Sequence record: NC_079180.1
Strand: one strand, 5' to 3'
From: Escherichia phage SKA49
DNA length: 51,548 bases
Position 1 is the first letter of the stretch. The number at the start of each line of letters is the position of its first letter. Positions 3,805-15,730 of this stretch are shown piece after piece. The position numbers and the translations under genes are program-made. Below the pieces are notes generated by a model. The model saw nothing but the letters and a program-made list of their open reading frames with translations. It did not search any database and was not told the DNA's origin.

Positions 3805-4053
3805 ATGGATACTGTGATTAAAGCTGCTTGTTTCAAAGACCTGCAAGATGGTCAAATCTTCACTGTTCGTTCTGTGAAGTGGATTAAAGTAAATGAGTCA
3901 GATAAGTACAATGCTGTAAAGTTCTTTGATTCAAGCAAAGCATGTACTTTTAGCGACAATATTGTTGTCAATATTGAAGTCGAATTAATTCCTGATGACG
4001 GAGATGTTGAAGCAACTCTTCGTAACACTGCTGGATATAACGAGGGATTCTAA
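3805..4053 (+). CDS. hypothetical early protein (82 aa)
   Basis: ATG with GGAG RBS 6 nt upstream; track ORF begins at TTG 3793. Confidence 0.6.
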   Translation: MDTVIKAACFKDLQDGQIFTVRSVKWIKVNESDKYNAVKFFDSSKACTFSDNIVVNIEVELIPDDGDVEATLRNTAGYNEGF

Positions 4054-4296
4054 ATGAATTATGCTTTATATCAATACATCAATCGCGATGGTGTTGTTTC
4101 TCATGCTTTGGTTAATACTGAAACCAGAGCAATAATGTTGGCAGACTTAATATCTTATACATCACTTTACGAAAACAAGCTGGTGTGGAATAATGCCGCA
4201 TATCCTGAATATGTTTGGCAAGCAATCCAGAATGACAAACATCACAAAGTTGTGGCAACTGCCACACATCCAGATTTCTTGAAAGTAAGAGGTTAA
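4054..4296 (+). CDS. hypothetical early protein (80 aa)
   Basis: ATG abuts upstream stop (TAAATG); track ORF. Confidence 0.55.
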   Translation: MNYALYQYINRDGVVSHALVNTETRAIMLADLISYTSLYENKLVWNNAAYPEYVWQAIQNDKHHKVVATATHPDFLKVRG

Positions 4297-9487: not shown

Positions 9488-10033
9488 ATGGAAAACCAAA
9501 TTAATCAAGCAGTAGAACAGCTTAAGTCCTGGCGTAGAGATGAAACTTTATTGGTTCGTTTCTACACAGGCGAAACTAATTCTGAATTTGTAGATGCGTG
9601 GATTGATGGACTAGCATGGCGCCTTTATGATTTCAGTATGTCCGAATATTTGCATGAAGAATATGGCATTGAGTACCCTGCAACAGGAACTTATGACATA
9701 ATTGAATCAAGAGATGAAGATGTTACAGAGGTTTGCTTTGTTGATGGCCTGTTCAGCCTACGCAAGTATGACAAATTCAATGAGCTTTTAAATGACACTG
9801 ATTTGTTTGTAGTTCTTGCTGCATTCCGTAGTGGTGAAATTGACATTTTCACTGTGAGCAGTTTGAACGACATGTTCATTACTCGTTGTGATTCAATTGC
9901 AGACTACTTCAAAAATTACGATGGGATAGAAGTTCCAGACCATCTTCGTCCATATATTGATTGGGATGCAATCACCAAAGATTACGGCAGTGACTATATC
10001 TTCTCTGAAGGAGTATTGTTCTTAAATGCGTGA
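9488..10033 (+). CDS. hypothetical protein (181 aa; alternative start 9476)
   Basis: Track ORF 9476..10033; GGAG precedes second in-frame ATG at 9488. Confidence 0.5.
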   Translation: MENQINQAVEQLKSWRRDETLLVRFYTGETNSEFVDAWIDGLAWRLYDFSMSEYLHEEYGIEYPATGTYDIIESRDEDVTEVCFVDGLFSLRKYDKFNELLNDTDLFVVLAAFRSGEIDIFTVSSLNDMFITRCDSIADYFKNYDGIEVPDHLRPYIDWDAITKDYGSDYIFSEGVLFLNA

Positions 10034-10265
10034 TTTAAATATTGCTGAACTTGAGGCTGGATTGATTGTTCACCACCAGCCTCGAAACACTTTCTATCGT
10101 ATTCTTGGGCCTACAAAGATTAAAACTCACTGCGGAAGTTGGGTGGATGGGTTTGCTTACCAAGAAGTTAAGAAGTACGGGGACCATACTTTCTTAAGTA
10201 TTGATTCTTCTACTATCTACACACGACCGAAAGAGCTATTCGACTCAGATTGGAAAACGCTATAG
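10026..10265 (+). CDS. hypothetical protein (79 aa)
   Basis: Track ORF overlapping upstream stop. Confidence 0.5.
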   Translation: MRDLNIAELEAGLIVHHQPRNTFYRILGPTKIKTHCGSWVDGFAYQEVKKYGDHTFLSIDSSTIYTRPKELFDSDWKTL

Positions 10266-10334
10266 TTCCAGGCGGGTTTCTTCGAAGTGCCAAGCGGGTT
10301 TTGTGCTCGCATTGGCCTTCGGCTTTAGTCTGAA

Positions 10335-10353
10335 ACATTAGTGGGATTTGATT
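10335..10353 (+). promoter_or_regulatory. phage promoter-like motif ACATTAGTGGGATTTGATT
   Basis: Preceded by CTGAA as in other copies; intergenic. Confidence 0.45.
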
Positions 10354-10476
10354 CTGACCACTTAGGGGAAGAAAGGCATTATACACTTATCGCCAAATGG
10401 GTGTCAAGCACTTTCTTCATTTATTTAATTTTATTCTTATTATTCTTTTTGTTTGGAATATTGGAATAATTCTGAA

Positions 10477-10495
10477 ACATTAATTGGAATTGAAG
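10477..10495 (+). promoter_or_regulatory. phage promoter-like motif ACATTAATTGGAATTGAAG
   Basis: Preceded by TCTGAA; intergenic, second copy in the same spacer. Confidence 0.45.
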
Positions 10496-11134
10496 AGACA
10501 ACATCAGATAAGAGCTTTGTAACTAGGTAGTCCGTCTGGTACCAAGACGTGTGAGAACGTTCGATTCGTTCTACAAAGCTCTTTTCGATGGAATGTTTCC
10601 ATCATATACATTTATCTTTTTAACATAGGCCAAAGGGCCGGAATACTTATTCGCAGAAAAGCTATTCACTTGTTATAGGCGATGTATTGGGATGAATTGG
10701 AACTAAATAAGCAAGCTGCTAGGGCTGAATAATTAGAGGGGTAATGCCTCATGCTTATGTTAGTCATTCGAAAATAGGTTTGTGCCACAAGCTGCTGGTG
10801 CTCTGAGGAAGTCGGACAAACAGGGCTTAGAGTGGCATAATCCGCACAAAATCGCGCCACCAGCTATGCCAAAGCAGGTGGATTGGGTGAATGTATTGGG
10901 AAGGGTTGCAAAGCCTCTGCGACACGCCTGAGCCGCAAGGCGACGACACTCATGTGATTAGCGTATCGCACCCTAACGGGAGTAACCCTTCGCCAATGCA
11001 GTTATCCAGAATTGACACAAACGGTAGGCAGTGGTCCGATTTTCGGCCTTCCTGTGCTACTCTGTGGCCTGTTTCATGGGCCAAAAGATGAGAAGAGAAG
11101 TCACAAACACTGAATCGAAAATTGGAGAGTTCCT

Positions 11135-11452
11135 ATGATTCGTAAGCATTCTGCCAAAGTTTTAACATTGAGAAATGTTGAAAGAGCTTTTAGTGATAGT
11201 GTTGAAGAAACACTACACTTCGTACTTATTGGTGGGTCATGGTATTACAATGGTACGTCTAACTTAAACCATTTGAGTAAGTCTCACAAAGATGGTTTTT
11301 GGGAATATGATATTAAATATATTCTCGAAGATAGTCCAAAGTTCAGCCTCGGTGAAATAAAAAGAAGTTTCTACCACGGCCCAAACAAGTCCATGCAAAT
11401 TGCAACACGTGAGTGGACATCAAATCAACGAGCTTATGGAGAGCAATATTAA
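11135..11452 (+). CDS. hypothetical protein (105 aa)
   Basis: GGAGAG RBS; track ORF. Confidence 0.55.
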   Translation: MIRKHSAKVLTLRNVERAFSDSVEETLHFVLIGGSWYYNGTSNLNHLSKSHKDGFWEYDIKYILEDSPKFSLGEIKRSFYHGPNKSMQIATREWTSNQRAYGEQY

Positions 11453-12898: not shown

Positions 12899-13795
12899 GT
12901 TGCCGATGGCAAACTTGAGAGACTAAGCTAAATCGATCTGGCATGCACTGGAAGTTTCCGGTGCTGCCTTGAACCCATTCCAGAGTGAGTGGGCTTCAAT
13001 TTGTACATAATTCAAACACCAGTGCATGAGCCTTCGACGGAAGGCAATGTTGGGAAATTTGTTGTGTACAAATTGAAGTAGTTTTCTGAGTCTTACGACG
13101 GGCCTAAACTGCCTGGAGTTATTGCGACTGTTTTATTCATTTAAAATAAATGCAAATGATTCTGAAATGCGAGTTGCGGCTTAATTAAATTTAAGTCCTC
13201 TCCGTGGTCTTCCAATCCCACGTAACCAAATTTGGCGCATTGTGGCTTCGAGATGTGATTAATAAATCGGAGCAATAATTAATTTGTATTCTGCGATGCA
13301 AAGCAGGCTTAAGTCCTCCAGTGCGCGTGGGGATGTGACAGAGTACAAACTTAATTATGCAGTTGGATATTTCTAGAGGACGGACGAGCACACTGGAATG
13401 TCTTCAATTGGTTTAGTGTGAGAAGCTATGCCAATTTGAAACGTAACTCCTTGGGGAAGTGCTCCTCTGGATTTCCCTCCACGCAGGAATCTCAAGCCTG
13501 TGGCAGTGACTTCGAAGCTGCACTGCGTAACCTAATTCACCCTAAAGTGAATTGCCCTGAGCATGGAAATAAACTGCTCAAACCGATGGTATCTACAAAG
13601 GTAGATTAAATCAGGTTGCCTGTTGGTACTTGGGTTCAACACCTGCTTGCACTCGCAAAGTAGTGCCTCGTACCTGAGATGAAGTGAGTCGGGACCATCA
13701 ATCCCACGTTATGTCAAAACACAGTAGGCGACTCACGGATTCTACAAGCCTCGCAGTTCGGGAAAACCTGCGTTATCAAAACCCCCCACCTATTT

Positions 13796-13887
13796 GGACG
13801 AGTAGCTCAGAAGGTTTGCATTGTGCTCAGTCAGGTAGAGCAATCTGTTCGACAGATGTGTCGTTGGTTCGAATCCAACCTCGTCCA
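13796..13887 (+). tRNA. tRNA-like element (possible tRNA gene or pseudogene; isotype undetermined)
   Basis: Perfect 7-bp acceptor stem GGACGAG/CTCGTCC, canonical T-arm GTTGG-TTCGAAT-CCAAC, discriminator A; core about 19 nt longer than standard, with duplicated GCTCAG flanking a 20-nt insert. Confidence 0.4.
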
Positions 13888-13917
13888 CCCATTTTCAACA
13901 ATAAACATGGAGTCCTC

Positions 13918-14303: not shown

Positions 14304-14436
14304 TTATTGCTTAATTGCACAACCAATCTATTTGGATGTTGCAGAAGTGAAAATCTTATCACGCGAAACCAAAACACAGATTCTAGTCCACAATGAAACG
14401 TGGGCACAAAAGTGTTCTCAACTTACCCGACAGTGA
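14227..14436 (+). CDS. possible lipoprotein (69 aa) overlapping the 3' end of 14067..14303 in another frame
   Basis: Signal-like MFRKKCLAVLIAMSIVSC with lipobox-like IVSC; weak RBS. Confidence 0.25.
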   Translation: MFRKKCLAVLIAMSIVSCSQSGFVSDYCLIAQPIYLDVAEVKILSRETKTQILVHNETWAQKCSQLTRQ

Positions 14437-15499
14437 GTGAACAAGATGAGCCTGTTGCATCTATAAATAAGTACAGTGAAACAAATGCTCGCCATCGCAT
14501 TTCATTTGGCAGTCCGGTACGGGACTTTAAACACACGTATATCATAGTCGAGGGAGTGCGCGACTTTAAATAACGAGACTCTAGCTACTTGTAGCATAGT
14601 AGGTGTAATTCCTGGTGCTCTGGGCATAACACATGATAAATTGCTGCCTCCTAGGATTGGAACGTCCCGCTACACATCGTTAGTGTGAGAAGGTTAGTCC
14701 ACCGAGACAAAGGCTTGCGGCTTGACTCCGGCCAAAGAAGAAAACGGCGTGCTTGAGAACGAAGCTCCGATGACTCCGTAAAGTCAACGTAATGAACGCG
14801 AAAAGTTCAGGTGGTCACTTCCTAAAACAGTGTCCGAGAGCATCCTCGCCAAAGTGCTTGAGAACGTTAGCTCTGTCTTGCCAGCATTAATGGCACGTTG
14901 GCCGCGTAAAGGCCACAGCGTCTGACCAACGTATCGGTCACCAAATTCAATGGATTCGTAGAGTTAATTAAACCTGCACGATGGGATAGGGATATAGCAT
15001 CCGAGGCCGACTGTGTAATTGCTGGCTTACTATAAACCAGCCGAATCCGCCAAATCAATGGGCTAGTGCAAATGTCAGTCACTAGAAGATGTGTTGCAAA
15101 ACGTCTTCCATGATGTGCAAAGTGTCAGTCACGTGCCCGCCAATTTCCTCCAACAGTTATGCCTCTGTTCAAAAGGCTCAAGAGAGCGTCTGGCATACCG
15201 TAGCGATACGGCTTAGTTGCGCTGATTGTGTTGTGCAGAAAGAAAGTTCAGGCTTTCGTTTGGGTTACTCCTCATCCCGAAGTTAGCTGGATTCAAAATC
15301 CAGACTATGTTCCTATACACATGAAATATGCAAGTCGAGGGTTCTTAATGTTCAAACATGATGCGAGCATTAAGCGGGTTTATACTTTTCCCCGATGGTC
15401 CCCATAAACAAGGCTGATTCACTTGGGCGGTTCGAATCAAATTTAATAAGTGTTTTGTAATACTCAGGGCACTTACTTAAATTTTAACTGGAGAGAAAC

Positions 15500-15730
15500 A
15501 TGAAAACTGCTGAAATTGCCGAAGAGATTTATAAGGCCGTAATAGCCAACCAAATCACAAGTGAAGTCCTGCACATGGATATTGAAGAAGTTCGCAATGC
15601 CTTTGGTGGTTTTGCAATCTTGTCAATAGAAGCTGCGGAAGCACTGACAAACACGTACAATCAACGCGAATATGAAAAGCGTTCTGTACTAAATGCGTCG
15701 ATGAAAGAAATTCAGGCGTCATTAAAATAA
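15500..15730 (+). CDS. hypothetical protein (76 aa)
   Basis: GGAGAG RBS; track ORF. Confidence 0.55.
   Translation: MKTAEIAEEIYKAVIANQITSEVLHMDIEEVRNAFGGFAILSIEAAEALTNTYNQREYEKRSVLNASMKEIQASLK

Follow-up and report, generated by a model that had tools for sequence, protein, structure and literature searches.

A control region and a predicted modular RNA of about 640 nt with a tRNA-like module in an intergenic gap of Escherichia phage SKA49 and its relatives

Genomic Setting of the Gap

The window, i.e., the whole stretch of 51,548 nucleotides from Escherichia phage SKA49 (NC_079180.1), represents a Carltongylesvirus genome (phiEcoM-GJ1/ST32-like, Chaseviridae). Its plus-strand gene map includes the RNA polymerase (331-2445), primase/helicase (16442), DNA polymerase (18271), and terminase (25937). 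The gap studied here is bounded by an upstream gene at 10026-10265 and by a downstream gene whose ATG is located at 11135. Its neighbourhood, which contains an ArdA-like antirestriction gene along with small-ORF cassettes that vary, is an accessory/anti-defence hot spot. A tRNA gene (13795-13891, ARAGORN) follows 2.7 kb downstream of the gap RNA. A phage CCA-adding enzyme as found in Myduc was considered and dropped, since the window carries ThyX at that position.

The initial annotation had described an ORF-free spacer of approximately 870 nt with two promoter-like motifs about 140 nt apart, an AT-rich tract at 10420-10470, and a GC-rich body without a convincing ORF. The spacer is indeed present; its longest ORF comprises 66 aa, and none is conserved in relatives. 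Both motifs are found as well, 142 nt apart and at slightly shifted coordinates, but they are not sigma-70-like and rather belong to a putative phage-RNA-polymerase promoter repeat. The tract 10420-10470 has a GC content of 13.7%. The GC-rich body extends over 10777-11092 with 53.5% GC, compared with 44.1% for the whole window, and ranks in the top 0.7% among windows of 316 nt. No sign of a host origin of this body was obtained by blastn among 5,426 E. coli genomes.

The gap splits into two parts, a DNA control region (10266-10494) and a modular structured RNA on the plus strand (10495-11134).

The DNA Control Region

The control region opens with a long terminator-like hairpin on the plus strand (10269-10332; MFE -29.4 kcal/mol, z -3.25), which has a mean pairwise identity of 0.946 among relatives and whose counterpart in SA91KD is annotated as a rho-independent terminator. 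This hairpin would close the upstream gene block that leads from the RNA polymerase to the antirestriction gene.

It is followed by two plus-strand members of a repeat family, the putative phage-RNA-polymerase promoters P-A (10329-10351, TCTGAAACATTAGTGGGATTTGA) and P-B (10471-10493, TCTGAAACATTAATTGGAATTGA), both identified by motif only. The family consists of four copies of a 27-nt repeat, at 10330, 10472, 12461, and 20305. Three sites match the 22-mer motif with at most 3 mismatches (0.00 expected), and the core CATTAGTTGGA occurs 11 times compared with 1.08 expected occurrences, ten of them on the plus strand. Repeat copies and core motif mostly lie just upstream of genes. The records of phiEcoM-GJ1 and SA91KD label the repeat as putative phage-RNA-polymerase promoters, P-A and P-B being putative phage promoters 4 and 5 in the phiEcoM-GJ1 annotation; according to the ICTV profile, promoters of the Chaseviridae have not yet been identified (PMC12842549). 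P-B is the likely start of the structured RNA. It doubles as an insertion site, where relatives carry extra cassettes bounded by repeats of the P-B 3' half. A paralogous hairpin RNA of approximately 120 nt forms such an extra promoter-bounded cassette in ST32, SA91KD, TH25, TH26, and PYps16N. The flopper record stops 6 nt from the RNA start; we interpret its end as a break in the assembly at the promoter repeat rather than a physical genome end. As a repeated DNA signal or second promoter class, AGCTGNTAGGGCTGA was rejected because it is present in a single copy in the window.

A perfect-consensus sigma-70 promoter, TTGACA-18-TATAAT, occupies 10378-10407 on the minus strand (12/12 hexamer matches) and is directed leftward, facing P-A. 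No other exact sigma-70 consensus exists on either strand of the window, and of 30 related loci that represent several genera, 26 retain this one, with varying bases between the hexamers. The adjacent AT-rich tract (10408-10471) has a GC content of 18.8%; only 0.07% of the genome's 64-nt windows are as GC-poor. It contains repeats resembling iterons or operators, with TTGGAATA present twice at 10453-10468 along with inverted TTATTC copies. Repeats of the GGAATA type reach higher copy numbers in Faunus and 4HA13, and the block GGAATATTGGAATAAT of the tract is invariant across genera.

Domains of the Predicted RNA

All elements described in this section lie on the plus strand. Domain 1 (10495-10606; MFE -36.2, z -4.02) is a 5'-terminal long hairpin with a tRNA-like cap. 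It is built from helix P0 (10495-10500 with 10594-10599) and helix P1 (10502-10520 with 10573-10590; 17-19 bp). P1 is 90.6% paired, compared with 39-50% in slid controls, and 10 of its 17 pairs are compensatory. The enclosed tRNA-like module (10521-10572) combines a T-arm and a GG-containing D-loop-like segment. Its T-arm, GAACG-TTCGATT-CGTTC (10554-10572), possesses the 5-bp stem and the 7-nt loop U-U-C-R-A-N-N of a tRNA; it is 95.8% paired among eight variants, with five of six pairs compensatory and an invariant loop TTCRA. A full cloverleaf is not recognised; the module has a truncated D-arm, and its acceptor stem runs into the 19-bp helix. With an identity of 0.65, no higher than the neutral level, the cap is hypervariable, yet the T-arm geometry and the closing stem are kept. 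The invariant GATGGAATGTTTCCATC follows the module at 10587-10603.

ARAGORN reports 13795-13891 as the sole tRNA of the window and does not detect the gap module, and the Rfam tRNA model (RF00005) has no match in 10100-11300, even at E up to 10. Among 17 loci, the only addition to the known tRNA is an ARAGORN call in the metagenome relative L052, whose homologous module is reported as 'tRNA-???' with a 2-nt anticodon in an abnormal anticodon loop.

The linker (10607-10701; identity 0.824; RNAalifold, per-pair counts) combines a small, invariant hairpin (10628-10639, GGCC-AAAG-GGCC) with a variable segment. It leads to the three-way-junction core (10702-10764), in which a closing helix surrounds the hairpin AGC-UGCUAGG-GCU, the single-stranded GAAUAAUUAG, and a second, variable hairpin. 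The junction is 92.2% paired, compared with 34-45% in slid controls, and 14 of 19 pairs are compensatory. It is the most widely conserved module of the RNA. Its bases in the loop and at the junction hardly vary between genera, and we consider it the likely binding site for a protein or another partner. Three further ideas were dropped: a hammerhead-like CUGAUGA core has an A as its G8 equivalent, a three-frame stop signal in the junction is lost in Y2, and a pairing of the junction loop with CCCUAA at 10971 is absent from other genera.

Downstream, an irregular long hairpin (10777-10843; identity 0.970), whose apical loop GGAAG is conserved, is recovered as the same fold by independent MFE predictions of ten homologues. 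Its pairing amounts to 81.7%, with 9 of 22 pairs compensatory, including all five of the apical stem. The GC-rich domain (10883-11009) consists of a 26-bp helix (25-26 bp; 10883-10909 with 10982-11009) that encloses a hypervariable branched apex (10918-10970) and a small hairpin CCC-UAAC-GGG (10971-10980). This helix is 89.9% paired (39-52% in slid controls), has 11 of 25 pairs compensatory, and accumulates 56 G.U compared with 11 A.C combinations. Separate folds of 4HA13, phiA050, Faunus, L033, Y2, and PM1 lead to the same long helix from different sequences. With 25-26 bp, it attains the length of double-stranded RNA that an RNase III site calls for (at least about 20 bp); P1 comprises 17-19 bp.

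The RNA is completed by 3' hairpins predicted by RNAalifold (11017-11092; 11023-11039 with 11043-11061, and 11066-11070 with 11078-11082), the first of which has four compensatory pairs among 20 Carltongylesvirus sequences. The ribosome-binding region and downstream start codon (11093-11137, GGAGAG at 11124-11129) have an identity of 1.000 in 17 sequences. No terminator was found before the gene at 11135; thus, a free-standing RNA would need processing.

Distribution of the Modules among Phages

Syntenic homologous regions occur in Sabourvirus, Faunusvirus, Loessnervirus, Suwonvirus, Myducvirus, an Aeromonas phage, and uncultured contigs. The three-way junction is present once in every Cleopatravirinae genome examined. 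Along this line, the covariance model R1 has a single match in the window (78 bits) and one per Cleopatravirinae locus examined; no R1 junction was found in four Nefertitivirinae loci (pAh6-C, PVN02, Spp001, VPs20). A search of 185,579 species genomes with the junction pattern yielded three chance-level matches, all devoid of the enclosing helices; such chance matches score approximately 20 bits, compared with 46-81 bits for real copies. Scans of metagenome and IMG/VR collections with 17-mer and 15-mer patterns mostly returned chance matches as well, and only L028, L033, L052, L066, L088/L125, L193, and L236 were real homologues after filtering.

Other modules are individually missing in relatives. 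About 10765-10993 is absent from phiEcoM-GJ1, Myduc and L236 retain the three-way junction only, and L088 has no tRNA-like cap. Hence, the GC-rich body is not essential.

The Rfam search proposed in the initial annotation identified no family, be it a riboswitch, ribozyme, intron, 6S, tmRNA, Y-RNA-like, or other model. With Rfam 15 at gathering and permissive thresholds, matches of the window within the gap were at chance level only, the hits (CrcZ 15.9 bits, Ysr209 16.9 bits) scoring far under the gathering thresholds, and eight related loci gave nothing at E up to 1. The region is not mentioned in the ST32, Yersinia-phage, Tiny, and ICTV papers.

Strand and Selection

The non-coding blocks have identities of 0.87-0.97; in the neighbouring gene, third codon positions reach 0.69 and second positions 0.90, and two apical segments of the RNA are at 0.65. 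Folding of the plus strand gives an MFE of -213.8 (z -3.67), compared with -179.1 (z -2.27) for the minus strand, and the predicted helices overall contain 353 G.U versus 35 A.C combinations. The G.U excess and the folding energy together point to an RNA on the plus strand, the direction of both promoters. Five helices were tested formally in alignments of 8-18 distinct sequences, many of them from close kin and several of the structures having been derived from those same sequences; each helix scored above all or nearly all shuffles and above every slid control. Furthermore, distant homologues folded independently converge on the same helices. The earlier idea of a non-coding RNA or structured long leader transcribed from tandem promoters thus gains support at the sequence level from the lack of a conserved ORF, the covarying helices, and the plus-strand specificity.

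Alternative Explanations

ORFs of 30-70 aa are annotated in the homologous stretch of several relatives (Mangalitsa, BSBP01, 2KOFFS, PYps3T, PYps23T, and others), which speaks for unannotated small protein genes. However, the annotated ORFs vary between records, the lengths of indels are not divisible by three, and entire segments are exchanged. Every ORF of at least 30 aa on either strand of the gap is interrupted in most of 16 relatives, and its substitutions do not favour the third codon position. In the control gene, by comparison, which all 16 relatives keep intact, 56% of the substitutions fall on codon position 3. We regard small protein genes as very improbable, and the conflicting 'hypothetical protein' annotations at this place in related GenBank records are probably wrong. 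Scarcely credible, too, is a neutral spacer or decayed recombination remnant at an insertion hot spot, as might be suspected from the cassettes after P-B, the replaced segment in phiEcoM-GJ1, and the gain and loss of modules between genera. It is already contradicted by conservation and covariation: the blocks far exceed synonymous sites in identity (0.87-0.97 versus 0.69), they can still be recognised between genera whose flanking genes share only 70-75% identity, and the helices stay paired through double changes.

The initial annotation had overlooked three features, namely the sigma-70 promoter on the opposite strand, the iteron-like repeats, and the tRNA-like module; these make an origin role possible for the first 230 bases. 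In a T7-type primary origin of this kind, transcripts from P-A or P-B, perhaps also from the leftward sigma-70 promoter, would open or prime the DNA. T7 replication starts at phi1.1A/1.1B, and every T7 origin requires a T7-polymerase promoter (PMC8373140). The corresponding layout, phage-polymerase promoters beside an AT-rich tract after the polymerase gene, is found here: the tandem repeats flank the 18.8% GC tract, the GGAATA repeats, direct as well as inverted, are conserved and have multiplied in other genera, and the site lies, like phi1.1A/1.1B, between the RNA polymerase gene and the primase/DNA polymerase genes. The control region is 93-96% identical among relatives, which is above coding-sequence conservation. 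Against an origin, the AT-rich tract lies between the promoters and not 3' of both, and 640 nt of strand-specific covarying helices with G.U pairs would be left unexplained; the cumulative GC skew rises monotonically with no inflection at 10.4 kb, which is uninformative as a test. An origin is in our opinion rather unlikely, and it could coexist with the RNA, being located at 10330-10495 with the RNA downstream. A serious though doubtful possibility is that the RNA, whole or in cut pieces, acts in trans in host takeover or counter-defence. Its tRNA-like cap could bind a host factor that recognises tRNAs, as a decoy or a platform; alternatively, the whole RNA could belong to the abundant ornate RNAs of the ROOL/GOLLD type, which are large phage-borne RNAs near tRNAs (PMC12286853). 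Hypervariability of the cap combined with a preserved T-arm geometry and closing stem is an arms-race pattern, and both the paralogous hairpin cassettes and the anti-defence neighbourhood would fit. On the other hand, no similarity to ROOL, GOLLD, or Y-RNA-like models was detected, and the place directly upstream of the operon's first gene suits a cis role equally well.

Comparison with Known Systems

Like GOLLD and ROOL, the gap RNA is phage-encoded, several hundred (more than 500) nucleotides long, rich in covarying helices, and associated with tRNA features near or inside it. GOLLD has one universally conserved part and a variable linker that sometimes holds tRNAs (PMC12286853); the gap RNA follows a similar plan with a universal three-way junction, variable modules, and a nested tRNA-like element. 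In contrast to GOLLD and ROOL, it occurs in virulent myoviruses of Enterobacterales and Aeromonas that carry a T7-like polymerase and forms a promoter-proximal leader directly upstream of an operon, and neither the window (E up to 10) nor the eight related loci match their Rfam models. Homo-oligomeric cage assembly is a further trait of GOLLD and ROOL.

The interval between T7 genes 1 and 1.1 contains the RNase III site R1.1. The gap shares with it the place between the RNA polymerase block and the DNA-metabolism genes, the tandem phage-polymerase promoters with an AT-rich tract, and long double-stranded helices downstream that could be RNase III substrates. The T7 interval, however, is short and has neither a multi-domain RNA of approximately 600 nt nor a tRNA-like module, an opposite-strand consensus sigma-70 promoter, or GGAATA repeats.

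YrlA, a bacterial Y-RNA-like RNA, combines a long stem with a tRNA-like domain. The gap RNA resembles YrlA and tRNAs in that its flanks build a long stem whose cap includes a canonical T-arm, with a 5-bp stem and the loop UUCRA, and a D-loop-like segment that contains GG; in contrast to a tRNA, the window copy has no normal D-arm or anticodon loop. E. coli K-12 is not known to have a Ro protein. Cis-acting phage leader RNAs include 5' stem-loops of the T7 type and put of HK022. In common with these, the gap RNA is structured right after its promoter, would share a transcript with the genes, and has a helix beginning at about the first transcribed base. It differs from them in being far larger and modular, and no terminator was found on which it could act.

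Proposed Role and Significance

We consider it probable that the gap combines a control region with a non-coding RNA of approximately 640 nt that acts through its fold, either as a leader or as a processed non-coding RNA. Most likely, it would be a processed or stabilising leader or non-coding RNA of the middle transcription unit. Transcription from P-B, the RNA ends, processing, and any function are what we infer here. Under this model, the gap would represent the border between the left-end block (RNA polymerase, endolysin, and antirestriction genes) and the DNA-metabolism block in a transcription programme of the T7 style. The terminator hairpin would end the upstream block, and P-A and P-B would restart rightward transcription, with the opposite-strand sigma-70 promoter and AT-rich repeats of a protein-binding type between them. 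From P-B, the phage polymerase would synthesise the RNA of about 640 nt and read into the first downstream gene without a recognisable terminator. The 5' long hairpin, beginning at about the first transcribed base, may shield the transcript end, while the long helices and the tRNA-like module may serve as cut sites for host RNases (III, P, E), yielding stable pieces. The three-way junction would be the functional core, and the GC-rich domain would be built on helices of 20-26 bp.

More tentatively, the gap RNA might belong to a new class of large modular ornate phage RNAs, an early product of a T7-like polymerase in virulent Enterobacterales phages, with an embedded fast-evolving tRNA mimic and an invariant junction that act in trans. 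Such an RNA would either engage a host or defence factor, as decoy or as scaffold, or self-assemble in the manner of ROOL and GOLLD, and would thus be more than a passive leader.

As far as sequence comparison can tell, this predicted covarying RNA with its tRNA-like piece, conserved across a phage subfamily, is previously undescribed. RNAs of the GOLLD/ROOL type mostly originate from hosts that are hard to work with. The gap RNA occurs in lytic phages infecting E. coli, Yersinia, Erwinia, and Pectobacterium, which can be grown on laboratory strains, and the natural losses of single modules make genetics, structure probing, and the search for partners directly feasible. Together with the promoter motif, the early/middle boundary, the opposite-strand host promoter, and the possible origin, the gap provides a first candidate regulatory map for the Chaseviridae.

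Genomic Setting and Coding Status of the Gap

BLAST analysis of the region yielded 49 matches among phage records, headed by Escherichia phages JL1, DE15, PO103-1, Bp7, and ST32 with 95–98% identity. The relatives all belong to the Chaseviridae, Cleopatravirinae, mostly to the genus Carltongylesvirus (phiEcoM-GJ1 group). The window comprises a near-complete genome with every gene on the + strand: the gene of a single-subunit, T7-like RNA polymerase (331–2445), small genes, among them those of an endolysin and of an ArdA-like antirestriction protein (end 10033), further small genes downstream of the gap, primase/helicase (16442), DNA polymerase (18271), exonuclease (21800), and terminase (25937), followed by portal and structural genes. 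Also downstream of the gap lies a tRNA (13795–13891), which at 97 nt is unusually long, carries 23 additional bases in its D region according to the Rfam alignment, and is Leu(CAG) according to ARAGORN; the ST32 paper assigned tRNA-Arg to a 95-bp tRNA that is apparently its counterpart. A second stretch of about 1 kb (14436–15500) lacks ORFs of at least 70 aa on either strand, and the Rfam gathering scan was empty there.

The ORF-free spacer described by the initial annotation is real: it lies between a gene that ends at 10265 and one that begins at 11135, preceded by GGAGAG at 11124–11129, and the longest intervening ORF has 66 aa. Of the two compositional features noticed before, the AT-rich tract (10408–10471, 18.8% GC) ranks among the lowest 0.07% of windows and the GC-rich body (10777–11092, 53.5% GC) among the top 0.7%. 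For a coding test, 16 relatives were aligned with the window, with the gene at 10026–10265 as control. This gene is intact in 16/16 relatives, and 56% of its substitutions fall on codon position 3. Gap ORFs of at least 30 aa on both strands are each broken in most of the 16 relatives, with no excess of third-position substitutions in any of them; on these grounds we rejected a protein-coding gap. The small 'hypothetical proteins' annotated here vary between GenBank records.

Mean pairwise identity in a neighbouring gene is 0.69 at codon position 3 and 0.90 at position 2. Within the gap, it reaches 0.93–0.96 in the control region (10266–10494), 0.97 in the hairpin 10765–10845, 0.965 in both strands of a long helix, and 0.87 in a three-way junction, and falls to 0.65 in the apical segments 10513–10580 and 10918–10970. 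In the alignment, near-invariant stretches alternate with tips that are replaced wholesale. Blocks of the gap were found by blastn in 4HA13, Faunus, and Aeromonas phiA050 at 79–90% identity, compared to 67–76% for the flanking genes. Judged from these alignments, the gap is under selection.

A Covarying RNA Fold on the + Strand

RNAalifold predicted a multi-domain fold from 20 Carltongylesvirus sequences. Its main helices were tested on alignments including distant homologues, with shuffled partners and partners slid by 1–3 columns as controls. In the P1 stem (10502–10520 with 10573–10590), 90.6% of the alignment cells are paired (slid controls 39–50%) and 10 of 17 pairs show compensatory changes. 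A T-arm-like hairpin (10554–10572) with the invariant loop TTCRA is paired in 95.8% (29–50%; compensatory 5/6), the three-way junction (10702–10764) in 92.2% (34–45%; 14/19), the hairpin 10777–10843 in 81.7% (23–46%; 9/22, apical stem 5/5), and the long helix (10883–10909 with 10982–11009) in 89.9% (39–52%; 11/25). An alignment-independent comparison of single-sequence MFE folds of homologous stretches recovered the same long helix from differing sequences of 4HA13, phiA050, Faunus, Y2, PM1, and the uncultured locus L033; these folds also agree on the hairpin 10777–10843 and on P1.

Folding of 10495–11134 yields −213.8 kcal/mol (z −3.67) on the + strand versus −179.1 (z −2.27) on the − strand. 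G.U pairs outnumber A.C pairs by 353 to 35 in the predicted helices; for the long helix across genera, the counts are 56 and 11. Therefore, the structure is that of an RNA on the strand which P-A and P-B, the two putative phage promoters of the control region, would transcribe, and a DNA cruciform was rejected.

Domain 1 (10495–10606) forms a helix from about the putative first transcribed base: GAGACA pairs with UGUUUC, then CAUC with GAUG, followed by the 17–19-bp P1. It is capped by a tRNA-like module consisting of a GG-containing segment (CTAGGTAG), a hairpin, and the T-arm GAACG-TTCGATT-CGTTC. Relatives have exchanged this cap for other versions; the version in the metagenomic locus L052 combines a canonical D-arm with a canonical T-arm and is reported by ARAGORN as a tRNA with abnormal anticodon loop, and that in L088 has shrunk to a plain hairpin. 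The almost invariant 17-mer GATGGAATGTTTCCATC after P1 could fold into a separate hairpin, but not while the base of domain 1 is paired; covariation cannot decide between the two because both are invariant.

Distribution and Modularity

No other piece of the RNA is as widespread as the three-way junction. R1, its covariance model, has a single match in the 51.5-kb window (10702–10764, 78 bits), one match per Cleopatravirinae locus examined (Carltongylesvirus, 4HA13, phiA050, Faunus, Y2, PM1, Myduc, and the uncultured L033, L052, L193, and L236), and none in four Nefertitivirinae loci. Its closing helix varies from AAGCA/TGCTT to AACGA/TCGTT, TACGA/TCGTA, AATGA/TCATT, and AACCA/TGGTT, while the sequences of loop (UGNUAGG) and junction (GA(A)UAAUUAG) remain constant. 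Scanning 185,579 species genomes for the junction pattern gave only three chance matches, all without the helices, and no sequence similar to the RNA was found in E. coli genomes.

In many relatives, an insertion sits precisely behind P-B and is delimited by a repeat of the promoter 3' half (CATTAGTTGGAATTGAA). One such insertion, present in L001 (1795–1913), L017 (629–747), L013 (633–747), L019 (628–738), and L011 (815–935), is a hairpin RNA roughly 120 nt long, whose stems apparently covary and whose interior (GGAGTCCACTGC...CAAGTCTGGACAACTTGG) is conserved; it looks like a paralogue of phiA050 domain 1. Another is a 58-aa ORF of the form CxxC...CxxC. As a promoter-bounded cassette, a zinc-ribbon-like ORF of 58–65 aa with two CxxC pairs, whose stop codon TAG falls within the promoter repeat CATTAGTTGG, recurs at differing places within the non-coding region of several genera (L014 629–805, L002 1794–1970, L011 629–806, L193 in reverse complement 3995–4192); in L193, promoter and ORF separate the junction from the 3' domain. 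Other insertion types exist. The GenBank and IMG/VR record of flopper (L035) stops at the promoter repeat, 6 nt before the structured RNA begins, which is probably an assembly break at a repeat and not a physical genome end.

In phiEcoM-GJ1, approximately 10765–10993 is replaced by a 133-aa ORF without a Pfam match, and Myduc and L236 retain the junction alone, 70–90 nt from the next gene. Since modules are replaced or missing in these relatives, the phages are viable without the GC-rich body, and each part behaves as a module independent of the others. An extra conserved hairpin module (GTGAC-AAAGGCTAGTCAC-CGGAG) of other genera (L004 2040–2090, L159 2520–2560, L052), absent from the window, sits between the hairpin 10777–10843 and the long helix.

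Control Region

The two promoter-like motifs that had been proposed are present at 10329–10351 and 10471–10493, spaced by 142 nt. They belong to a repeat family of four copies (10330, 10472, 12461, 20305). Against an expectation of 1.08, the core CATTAGTTGGA occurs 11 times, and ten of these copies are on the + strand. Further + strand copies lie at 252, 2563, 6996, 12467, 20311, and 40408, most of them (252, 2563, 12467, 20311, and 40408) in short intergenic gaps directly upstream of genes; one copy precedes the RNA polymerase gene by 79 nt. The phiEcoM-GJ1 record annotates the two gap copies as 'putative phage promoter 4' and '5', with similar annotations in SA91KD. A hairpin at 10269–10332 (z −3.25) corresponds to a terminator annotated in SA91KD.

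Between P-A (10330–10351) and P-B (10472–10493), TTGACA-18-TATAAT runs from 10407 to 10378 on the − strand, directed leftward and facing P-A. It is the only exact sigma-70 consensus (TTGACA-N16-18-TATAAT) on either strand of the window, lies opposite to all genes, and is kept without mismatch in 26/30 related loci of several genera with variable spacers between the hexamers. No conserved ORF was found downstream of it. The adjoining AT-rich tract contains two copies of TTGGAATA as well as inverted copies reading TTATTC; its iteron- or operator-like GGAATA(A/T) direct repeats are 8 bp apart, and repeats of this type are more numerous in Faunus and 4HA13 (L006 1940–2045, L004 1450–1545).

Putative Roles

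The gap carries an RNA architecture that is conserved, strand-specific, and covarying, and whose family has so far not been catalogued. The Rfam search that had been suggested returned no family in Rfam 15, neither in the gathering scan of the window nor at E<=10 in 10100–11300 or at E<=1 in eight related loci. Full-text searches on Chaseviridae, Carltongylesvirus, and phiEcoM-GJ1, the phiEcoM-GJ1 genome paper aside, revealed no account of an RNA at this locus. The earlier proposal that tandem promoters feed a non-coding RNA or structured leader is supported, with the promoters as predictions.

We adopt a leader or processed non-coding RNA as the putative role. Protection of the transcript would fall to the 5' helix, the helices of 17–26 bp and the tRNA-like cap would offer RNase entry points, and the invariant three-way junction may be a partner-binding core. 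A role in trans is a serious alternative, e.g., as a tRNA-mimic decoy or as an ornate RNA of the ROOL/GOLLD kind (PMC12286853). Either role may coexist with an origin function of 10330–10495. With its repeat-bearing AT-rich tract and tandem phage promoters after the polymerase gene, the control region resembles phi1.1A/1.1B, the primary origin of T7 (PMC8373140); the GC skew has no signal for or against an origin. As to the leftward sigma-70 promoter, one may speculate about a roadblock or interference at the early/middle boundary, or about origin activation.

P-A and P-B are still predictions because the ICTV profile states that promoters of the Chaseviridae have not been identified (PMC12842549). 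For this family, the copies of CATTAGTTGGA constitute a candidate promoter map.
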